Source: Lingula anatina
Lineage: Eukaryota; Animalia; Brachiopoda
Direction: 5' to 3'
DNA: 64,000 bases
Assembly: GCA_051362555.1 (NCBI GenBank)
Contig: CM120646.1
Span: 11,346,001 to 11,410,000, forward strand
Part shown: one piece after another, positions 6,372 to 32,439 of the stretch
Numbering within the stretch: the first letter of the stretch is position 1
How the letters are laid out: each line of letters starts with the position of its first letter
Notes under the pieces: model-generated
What the model was told of the DNA's origin: nothing
Databases searched by the model: none
The model's input: the letters and a program-made list of their open reading frames with translations, nothing else
Made by a program: the position numbers and the translations under genes

Positions 6372-6598
6372 ACATTAAACGATCTCCCCAACCAGCTGGC
6401 TGTCAATATCACAGTATACGGCCTCAGCAGCTCTGTCTACGTCCACGTGAAGTTTCATCTCTTCATTAGCCATGTCAAAACATTGATATTTCCACATTAA
6501 ACTATCTCCCCAACCAGCTGGCTGTCAATATCACAATACACGGCCTCAGCAGCTCTGTCTACGTCCACGTGAAGTTTTATCTCTTCATTAGCCATGTC
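6372..6598. repeat. Direct duplication (~105 bp) of the end of gene A's last coding exon
   Basis: About 6372-6477 repeats about 6495-6598 (CATTAAAC..TCTCCCCAACCAGCTGGCTGTCAATATCAC...TTCATTAGCCATGTC) with few substitutions. Confidence 0.9.
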
Positions 6599-9500
6599 TC
6601 TAAGACTGATGACAAGATTGTCGAACGTTGGGCGTTCTGTCGGTTCTTCCTCCCAACACAACATCATCATATTGTACCTAAACATGTAAGTATAATATCA
6701 GCCTTATGCATCATAGACGGCCATTAATATCATTATTTTTTCAGTTTTCATTTTCGGCAATCGGGTTTTAAAGAAACTTTATAATACCGTTTATCCGGTC
6801 AGACATATGTTCTGCCCCAGAAGAGAAATGACGAGGGAAAATCGCATATAGTTCATATATTCGTGGGTTGAATTATATATGCATTATATTATCAAAATAA
6901 TTTTGTAGTACAAGCTACTTCAGCAATAGTGACAGTTAAATATCACCTACGGTACAAGACAATAGGTGCATATTCATACATACATTTTTAATATTTCTTT
7001 TTCCGTATAATTTCGCACTATCCCTGCCCGTAAATTCGAATTTAACCTACAGTTGTACATTACCAATCCACTTTTACTCCACTTACAGTTCCTGTGTACA
7101 GTGTTGAGGTTTCTCCATTCTGTATCCTGACCTGATCTCACGTATTAGTTCTCGTCCAGACGTAATACCAGGGTAGGGGGTAGCTCCTGTATACGTCACC
7201 ATTTGTGGAAATAAAATGAATATTTCGTTAAGGCCAGAAGAAATTGCCAATAATGGAAGTTGGAGGGGGCATTCTATTTCCAAAAATAACAACGTTTTCT
7301 TTGATTTAGTTATTTATCCCCAAACTTAATGTAGTGCTTACTACAACAAATAAAAAGAAGAATCTTCCAATAAAGATGAAATAATATGCACTATAACCTT
7401 ACCACATGTATGATTGAATAATCATATTCGAGCATGGAAAAATAATAATCAGACATATCCACCCATCCGTATACAAACGTTTTATAATTGTTTCAAACAA
7501 TACAAACAGTGACAAATATTTTTTGCATCATACCTAAAGTGACAATCTCCCAGAGAAGAACGCCAAACGACCACACATCACACTTAGTGGTATACACGCT
7601 GGCAGAAATGGATTCTGGTGCCATCCAGCGGATAGGGAGAGGGCTCTGGTGCGTAATAATAAATGATTTAAAGATATTGATTTTCTTTTCTAAATTTTCA
7701 ATCAAAATGTAAATAGTATCACATCTAAAGTTCATACGAATTCCAAAAGTTGTATGATAAACATTGGTGCGCACAATAAAAGAAAGAGAGTACTAGTACA
7801 CAAAGTTGAGGCGGTTATTTTTATAGATTGACTGGAGGTTGGTGCTGCTTTCGTAAAACATCGTTTGAACGCATGTGTGGTTTCATCACCATTTCATGCT
7901 GCATCATAACCTACCAAACATACGTACCGGGCCCATGATGCAAATTAATATTAATATGTGTTGGTTTCTAAAATATAAATTATTCCACTTGTACCGCATC
8001 CCTACCTCCATTCTGCTGAGATACTCCCTGCTGTCAATGACGTCACGAGCCAGACCAAAGTCGGACACCTTACACACCATGTCGTCACTGACCAGTATGT
8101 TCCTGGCGGCCAGGTCCTGGTGTAGGAACTTTGAGTGAGAAATGAAAGCGTGCAGCTATTTGTACGTGGATATATAGATGGAAGCTGTTCAAGAGTGAAA
8201 TAATATATTCCTCTCTTTTTTTTTCTCGAACAGATTTTAAGAAATACTAAATGAGTTCGTCTCATTTTACAGTAGCTTTTTTACACACTTTTTCAATTAA
8301 CTATATTGTGCTAAAGCGTTCACTTAGTATATCGTACTTAATCTTATTCACATATCATTACATCAACATTATATTACTTCACACATTATTGCACTGCCTA
8401 TTCTGCATCTGCCATAGAGTTGACCAACCTTATATCTAGATATGTGAGCCATTCCTTTGGCAGAATCTAGAGCATATGACAATATATTCCGTGACGTCAA
8501 TTTACTACTTCCACCATGCAGATTACTATAGGTGTTGTGACTGCGGCTTTTATGGAGATATGTCTTAAGGTTACCATTGCCAAGGTACTCTAACACAAGG
8601 AACGCACGGGCTGGAAAAGTTGGATACCTATAAACAACTGCATGTACATCCTCGTTATCCGCTTCGTTTTGAATCTCTAGTAGTCTTCTAATTTAACCAT
8701 CGCGATATACAGTTAAATGATAATCATAAGAAGTTATTAAGGCCTTTAATAAGGCTATAGGGAGCTGTTCAGTTTATTTTTACCTGCTGATTTACAGAAT
8801 CCCAACATGACAACCACATTTTCGTGCTGAGGCACTAACTGCATGGTATCTATTTCTCTGAAGAAGTCTCTTTTGTCAACTTCTGTGTACTGTTCTGAAA
8901 TAAATGAGCACATCATGAACAATAGCTATTTCCAGGTGTGGAATAAGGTAGAAATAGATAAAAAATATCATAAAGGGACTGGGCATTTGATTACCTAGCT
9001 CATACTTAAAGATTTACTCAAAAACGTACCTTTCAACAGCTTTACAGCAACGGCAGCATTAGTGGTTTTTAAAATGGCTTTGAAGACCTCGCCAAAGTGA
9101 CCATGTCCTATGTTCTGTAATAGTTCTATGTCGTTGAGATTGAGTTCTTGAGCTGATTCGTTTAAAGTAATATATGTGTTTCGCTGGTTCTGAAAATTAA
9201 AATAATTAAAGGATACTGCAACCTTTATGGTCATTCCAATTACATGCATATATATTAGTTTTTAATACTACGTTGCAAGCGTTTACGTCAAAATGTATGA
9301 ATACTTACAGAGATAATGAATAGATTTCATCAGTATCACACAGTTGTGTAATCATAAAACTTAAAACCTCAGTTAATAAAAATACCACCATTACCTCTTC
9401 TACCCTCTCAGGTACTTCGTACATGTGGTAATCGTCTGTGTTGCCCTTTCTAAATCGATTTATAAATCTTATAAAAGGCAACTTTAAAGTCTTTCCAGGA

Positions 9501-32200: not shown

Positions 32201-32439
32201 GGACGAATTTGTTTTCTTGTGCTTTTCTTATTATAACCGTTTTATACAATAAACATTGAAGATAATATTTTCTATCTATAAGTGTTAAACGTTAAAAATA
32301 TCAAATCCCATTGCAGGCATTGAGGTTAAACGTGGAAGGACTCATTTATGCGGACCTTGATATTATCGGCAGGCCCCCAAAGAGAACGACTTTTATCGAG
32401 AGAGAGAAAACGGAATACGTGCAAATAAGGAGGGTGTAG
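29221..32439 (+). CDS. Gene C: two-Ig transmembrane receptor with ITIM and ITSM-like tail, no kinase
   Basis: Exons: 29221-29299 leader; 29989-30357 V-Ig; 30623-30925 Ig2; 31153-31326 TM; 31917-31969; 32317-32439 reading ALRLNVEG-LIYADL-DIIGRPPKRTTFIEREK-TEYVQI-RRV*. Canonical splice sites with matching phases. Confidence 0.9.
29415..29582. mobile_element. 168-bp MITE in intron 1 of gene C
   Basis: TIR CAGGCCCTTAGCCAG...CTGGCTACGGGCCTG; 5-bp direct repeat CACTA on both sides; the paralogous introns of A and B lack it. Confidence 0.85.

Follow-up and report, generated by a model that had tools for sequence, protein, structure and literature searches.

The 64,000-nucleotide stretch of Lingula anatina DNA analysed here (the window) contains four receptor gene models. 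Genes D, B and A follow one another in this order on the minus strand and C lies on the plus strand, head-to-head with D, the start codons of C and D being 777 bases apart. Gene A (6497..11989, minus strand) is a 12-exon open model encoding 581 residues and consists of leader, V-type Ig, transmembrane (TM) and juxtamembrane (JM) exons followed by a type 1 kinase. Gene B (14426..20297, minus strand) is modelled as a protein of 686 residues with leader, V, Ig2, TM and JM segments joined to a copy of kinase 2 that harbors the substitution K417N, and gene C (29221..32439, plus strand), modelled at 366 residues, has the same five segments and ends in a 40-residue ITIM/ITSM tail. Finally, gene D (22796..28443, minus strand) is an intact receptor tyrosine kinase (RTK) comprised of its own unrelated V domain, a stalk exon, a TM segment and kinase 2. 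All four models show open frames with GT-AG introns, the exception being a GC donor at the D stalk exon (26904-26951, minus strand); this exon is also present in RefSeq model XP_013397377.1, and D has 514 residues without it and 530 with it. Searches of the window with the four proteins (tblastn) revealed no kinase match outside 6400-32500 apart from a duplicate at 6378-6476. The region 35100-56700 contains many dispersed repeats (70-87%) and no tblastn match to the A-D proteins.

Comparison of A, B and C, which all lie within 26 kb, bears out the original prediction that they share upstream DNA and leader, V, TM and JM exons: the leader exons are 82-92% identical, the V exons 81-84%, the TM exons 80-84% and the JM exons 72-77%, and the 600 bases upstream are 81-94% identical. 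At the protein level this cassette is 62-69% identical among the three genes. The Ig2 exon is common to B and C and absent from A, and the TM segments of all three are uncharged. The predicted common phase-0 donor (GAT/GTAAGT) was found in each gene, at 10025 and 17783 on the minus strand and at 31969 on the plus strand; that of A closes its JM exon (10025..10077, minus strand), which is spanned by a contig covering 9875-10271 in an independent DNA contig set (X2). The further claim that the genes continue from this donor into kinase 1, kinase 2 and the ITIM tail, respectively, stands as far as the open frames go, but the joining of the JM exon to the three outputs is a gene model with predicted splicing and no such transcript was seen for A or B.

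The V exon of A (11143..11526, minus strand) matches Pfam Ig_2 (E=3e-6) and the V domain of C matches V-set (E=7e-6); D also carries a V-set domain (E=8e-9), which is unrelated to those of A, B and C. A low-confidence structure model of the V domain (pLDDT 53) resembles V domains of the PD-1/PD-L1 type. Ig2 gave no Pfam match and its structure model (pLDDT 41) is too poor for use; we term it Ig-like on its C-W-C pattern alone. All exon gaps between the cassette copies are multiples of three (V 6, 6, 6, 9 and 18; Ig2 3; TM 27; JM 3; some represent one event), whereas along the duplicated unit, which is mostly non-coding, this holds for 14 of 61 gaps, and a simulated neutral copy of the C cassette avoids a stop in 2-3% of runs. 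Frame-keeping selection thus acts on the cassette. The V exons of A, B and C show dN/dS values of 0.89-0.99, a range near 1 in which relaxed and diversifying selection are not separable. Accelerated evolution specific to V was considered and rejected: V is 83% identical compared to 91-94% in the upstream flank (p=4e-6), but the post-V intron is even less alike (73.5%), and the divergence of V therefore marks a recombination breakpoint rather than selection. Clustering of the variable V columns was not significant (p=0.08), and between the two alleles of A that could be compared 1 of 128 V residues differs.

The cassette is multi-copy, Lingula-specific and kept in frame. A profile search of 1.84 billion representatives gave 11 matches at E<=0.001 and no close cassette relative outside Lingula; the one close match is the RefSeq allele of A, and the other ten are long proteins, none of which (0/10) has both HRD and DFG. 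As the representatives stand for 50% clusters, B- or C-like proteins would be concealed in the cluster of the A allele. When the V exon of C was compared with 101 candidate proteins of 215-2000 residues, the single match was again the A allele, and no B- or C-like protein appeared.

The tail exon of C (32317..32439, plus strand; predicted splicing) encodes LIYADL, an ITIM, and TEYVQI, an ITSM, with the two tyrosines 23 residues apart. Both motif types occur together in 0.2% of 200,000 residue shuffles (frequency 0.002). Of 759 pseudo-exons in the window, 4 contain both, the C tail being one of them, and the predicted ITIM/ITSM tail is thus confirmed in the modelled protein, with canonical motifs. 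From the motif consensus, C would recruit an SHP2-type phosphatase via its two tyrosines and so dampen signalling. The native form of the cassette is likely the ITIM/ITSM-tailed C; because no B- or C-like protein was found and the splicing and expression of C are presumed, its role as functional ancestor is a proposal from sequence.

Gene D carries the full RTK set (signal peptide, one TM segment, GxGxxG, VAVK, HRD and DFG), and the B kinase is 96.6% identical to it in amino acid sequence. The D TM exon runs directly into k0, the same first cytoplasmic exon that B uses, so that B has two successive basic stop-transfer stretches. In XP_013397377.1, a D-type model with the stalk exon, an acceptor 9 bases upstream of k0 is used. 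The D juxtamembrane region (25405-25605) contains 6 residues that are private relative to B and two RefSeq copies, with an unchanged kinase core. In B the VAVK lysine is replaced by asparagine through a single base (AAC at 16959..16961, minus strand; AAA in D). Loss of this lysine normally abolishes kinase activity, and the B kinase encoded here is therefore likely dead, but as an allele and not as a family design: the lysine is present in all three other kinase-2 sequences that cover the site (D, XP_023932011.1 and XP_013397377.1), whereas a dedicated receptor pseudokinase would have its catalytic loss fixed in the lineage. Moreover, beyond codon 51 the B and D kinases differ by 14 synonymous and 3 non-synonymous changes, one of them the K-to-N change itself, and this dN/dS of 0.06 argues against a long drift of B as a pseudokinase. 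Of the proposed dead kinase, then, the substitution stands but its status as a settled feature is not supported; the K-to-N change is likely a point loss and not a fixed third output.

Self-alignment revealed how the B unit is assembled. The segment 10973..17534 is a tandem duplicate of 19141-25996 and comprises kinase 2, intergenic DNA, promoter, leader and the start of V; its identity is ~91% in non-coding DNA and drops to ~75-80% from mid-V onward; this switch inside the V exon (from ~91% to ~77%) indicates further recombination. The likely B fusion junction (17534..17667, minus strand) lies in the intron between JM and k0, which resembles C over the first ~115 bases after the JM donor and D over the last ~45 bases before k0, with the C and D alignment blocks ending at 17667 and 17534, respectively. 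The RefSeq model XP_023932011.1 has a B-type kinase, with F at a site that distinguishes B from D and an intron read-through that differs by 1 residue from B and 4 from D; it nonetheless has VAVK and a D-type TM end. This combination makes it likely that B arose by a deletion-fusion and that K-to-N is a private base change, although such a model could also result if D and B were collapsed during assembly. The scaffold of XP_023932011.1 has the same length (448,673) as that of XP_013398663.1, the match to A described below, and as that of XP_013398665.1, which carries B-specific residues. A further RefSeq kinase-2 copy, XP_013416958.1, bears several private changes. At 5430-5699 lies a decayed remnant of another unit, with 23 bases of the last kinase-2 exon and with intergenic DNA that is ~72-74% like 13680-13929 and 22051-22306.

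The kinase of A (exons k0-k7, 6497..9508, minus strand) has HQD in place of HRD in its catalytic loop (R414Q, position 8118) and CDVW in place of SDVW (S473C, position 7582); these are two of the 4 residues that are private to it among 4-6 RefSeq relatives. RNA reads show R at 8118 in 18 of 18 cases, as do the X2 contigs, and S at 7582 in 75 of 75, but these reads are mostly of paralogue type and do not prove the state of A alleles elsewhere. R-to-Q changes at HRD occur among human disease mutations. In one study, replacement of this arginine by Cys in Src64 had little effect and its replacement by Ala in c-Src left 10% activity on substrate (PMC3223231). A change of the HRD arginine thus need not kill a tyrosine kinase, and the effect of HQD in A is uncertain. 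The prediction of A as the active kinase arm holds in that kinase 1 follows the cassette in an open frame, but with HQD and CDVW private to it A is not a clean active arm.

The A layout itself recurs. Between the leader and kinase exon 3, the L. anatina model XP_013398663.1 differs from our A model at 7 of 410 residues, and beyond this point it runs into an intron; the window haplotype thus differs from the RefSeq haplotype. In a second RefSeq model, XP_023932337.1, the JM exon is read in another frame and is followed by an HRD-intact kinase 1. One X2 contig spans 9875-10271 and another matches 9388-9769 exactly. This recurrence of the fusion in RefSeq and X2 DNA argues for persistence over decay. 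A micro-exon at 9948..9973 (minus strand), orphaned from the native kinase-1 gene, retains its donor but has no AG acceptor in the window, and it likely marks the A fusion point; A keeps only ~16 bases of the C-like intron. Several other features of A were observed. Its first cytoplasmic exon (9395-9508) exceeds by ~57 bases the version found in 10 reads of RNA run X11. The last codons are present in a 105-base tandem duplicate (6372-6476 and 6494-6598, 96%), the downstream copy of which keeps the paralogue-type residue and the junction of which is also in X2 DNA and absent from RNA reads. The TM-JM intron (10216-10440) contains a high-copy repeat (X2 bin depth ~17,900), found also at 2188-2304, that supplies the odd first residues of XP_023932337.1.

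To relate the models to transcripts, three RNA runs and the X2 contigs were compared with 6480-20400, that is, with A and B only. At 92% likeness, 143, 4 and 248 reads were placed from runs sampled to 6, 6 and 25 in 100, for which the tissue was not given, and the details here rest on the 15 of 25 joints, 18 of 69 loose ends and 41 of 338 differences that were listed. Among the listed joints, four kinase-1 introns are confirmed by 46, 60, 41 and 10 reads. These reads come mostly from paralogues: at position 7602, 62 of 64 carry the residue typical of the paralogue cluster (XP_023933531.1 type), and the reads exit the window at 6482-6487 with their 3' ends. At least 16 reads (10 and 6) enter through the micro-exon from an upstream exon that is absent from the window, which indicates that kinase 1, like kinase 2, has its own native head. 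The bin that holds the A JM exon has depths of 0.60 and 0.36, contributed wholly by the 16 micro-exon reads. Depth was zero in the TM and leader bins of A and in the JM, TM, V and leader bins of B in these three partly sampled runs, and in one run each it reached 0.32 in the V bin of A and 0.26 in the Ig2 bin of B; paralogous kinase exons reach ~20-55 reads. Transcripts joining the JM exons to a kinase, as originally predicted, were found for neither A nor B in the three partly sampled runs, and the A-like kinase reads are spliced to a different exon upstream. Expression of the grafted forms was not observed, and sampling is too thin to term them silent. X2 contig depth ranges from ~24 to >300 across the locus, which is suggestive of several copies but is not a copy number.

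The explanation that we favor, and hold to be probable though far from certain, builds on the shared cassette, the open frames, the duplication blocks, the private substitutions and the separate front end of each kinase. In a tandem array of Lingula, two unrelated RTKs likely acquired an Ig cassette, itself likely native to C, through duplication and deletion at a phase-0 intron, and the resulting chimeras A and B are likely young and likely losing kinase function in this haplotype, where both carry substitutions at conserved sites. An ITIM-tailed Ig receptor would have been interleaved with RTK genes in a birth-and-death array, and deletions at compatible phase-0 introns would join its cassette to whichever kinase followed downstream. 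If its kinase were intact, such a chimera would convert ligand binding of like kind into a kinase signal. Because a different native head exists for each kinase and the intron shared with B is retained in C, deletion-fusion of a C-type cassette would be the simplest history.

Other readings account for parts of these data. The original prediction was of three outputs, and in its strong form A as an active kinase, B as a dedicated pseudokinase and C as the inhibitory receptor would form a maintained system, mutually tuned in immune cells. The shared cassette, the open frames, the V dN/dS of ~0.9 and the canonical ITIM and ITSM fit this picture, but the K-to-N change is a single private base absent from all three comparable sequences, A has HQD and CDVW, no reads fall in the TM and leader bins of A and B or the JM bin of B in three runs, and the ectodomains are only 62-69% identical, with A lacking Ig2. 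We therefore consider a maintained three-way system very improbable, and the three-output design is not supported by the comparison. Still less credit is due to the cluster as an assembly artefact in which haplotypes were joined in tandem and base errors fell at K-to-N and HQD. At 17086, 17227 and 17232 the X2 contigs carry the D-type state throughout (212/212 depth), no listed X2 contig spans the B junction, and contigs rather than raw DNA reads were compared; however, the units differ by ~9% in non-coding DNA and by 20-25% beyond mid-V, compared to 0-7% between eight listed X2 contigs and the window, and the A layout recurs in RefSeq and X2.

A more serious alternative, if still an unlikely one, is that the chimeras arose as by-products of array instability and are not expressed, and that only C-type receptors and native RTKs work, possibly in adhesion, wound or neural signalling and not in immunity. 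The near-zero RNA depth on the fronts of A and B, set against the paralogous kinase exons, is what this account expects, as are the private substitutions, the changes in XP_013416958.1 and the decayed unit at 5430-5699, and RefSeq names the kinases Cad96Ca-like. The A fusion, however, is in frame, common to two genomes and nearly unchanged between alleles, A has lost the single acceptor able to interrupt it, and the RNA runs were thinly sampled from unspecified tissue at 92% likeness. Building on the favored grafting history, a bolder proposal is that Lingula repeatedly grafts the cassette of an ITIM receptor onto whole RTKs, that the kinase arms go through the same rise, segregation and decay as activating KIR, and that A-type copies with HRD intact now act as activating partners of C in an immune pair. 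We regard this as speculative and rather doubtful; the proposed immune or self/non-self role is a hypothesis suggested by the motifs and the evolutionary pattern.

At this locus the junctions are visible, and a phase-0 intron lets one Ig front end swap between an inhibitory tail and unrelated kinases. If kinase forms are co-expressed with C, paired receptors would here have been reached without an adaptor, in a phylum with little-studied immune receptors, and, if true, the rule of inhibitory first, activating recurrent and short-lived would become testable outside vertebrates. If they are not, the locus would clearly illustrate how birth-and-death exon shuffling can imitate paired receptors.

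In Lingula, kinases 1 and 2 belong to an expansion of RTKs, Cad96Ca/FGFR/Tie-like by their RefSeq names, whose 12 RefSeq models are spread over five scaffold lengths. Models of both kinases co-occur on three scaffold lengths (448,673, 70,937 and 260,670) that may represent either paralogues or haplotypes left uncollapsed. RefSeq annotates this expansion piecemeal and does not note the shared cassette, and no description of the locus was found in the titles and abstract openings of papers outside subscription journals. A sponge set of RTK and adhesion molecules with like Ig ectodomains was already known: the RTK of Geodia cydonium and the adhesion molecules SAML and SAMS have like V and C Ig tandems that are polymorphic and linked to self/non-self recognition (PMC11926128). 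The Lingula array resembles this set as an invertebrate RTK alongside non-kinase receptors with alike Ig ectodomains, and Geodia proteins were not among the 12 PDB matches of the Lingula V profile, no sequence relation being found. SAML, in work attributed to Blumbach in 1999, is said to carry an ITIM. Unlike Geodia, Lingula uses two different kinases and its genomic junctions are visible.

The vertebrate paired receptors (KIR, Ly49, SIRP, Siglec, CD300 and LILR) are clustered Ig receptors with related ectodomains and an ITIM member, and the Lingula array shares these properties, C being the member with ITIM and ITSM in its modelled tail. Classic paired ectodomains are usually more alike than 62-69%; those of Lingula are at this level, with Ig2 missing from A, and the array is a candidate paired-receptor family, whose members would also be co-expressed, share a ligand and signal in opposite directions. 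Unlike paired receptors, the Lingula genes have no charged TM residue for the ITAM adaptor route, and in the role of putative activating arm stands an entire RTK kinase acquired through exon shuffling. Activating KIR and Ly49 receptors have evolved time and again from inhibitory ancestors and do not last long (PMC2213150), and the proposed inhibitory ancestor and recurrent short-lived activating derivatives in Lingula would follow a similar life cycle. Among invertebrates, Alr of Hydractinia (PMC9546547) and the fester co-receptors (FcoR) of Botryllus (PMC12065747) are, like the Lingula array, lineage-specific clusters of Ig receptors, and their ITIM/ITAM-type tails vary between members. Both are highly polymorphic and have genetic proof of allorecognition, compared to the single V difference between the two A alleles, and they signal by motifs, whereas the kinase-bearing members of the Lingula array would signal by intrinsic kinases.
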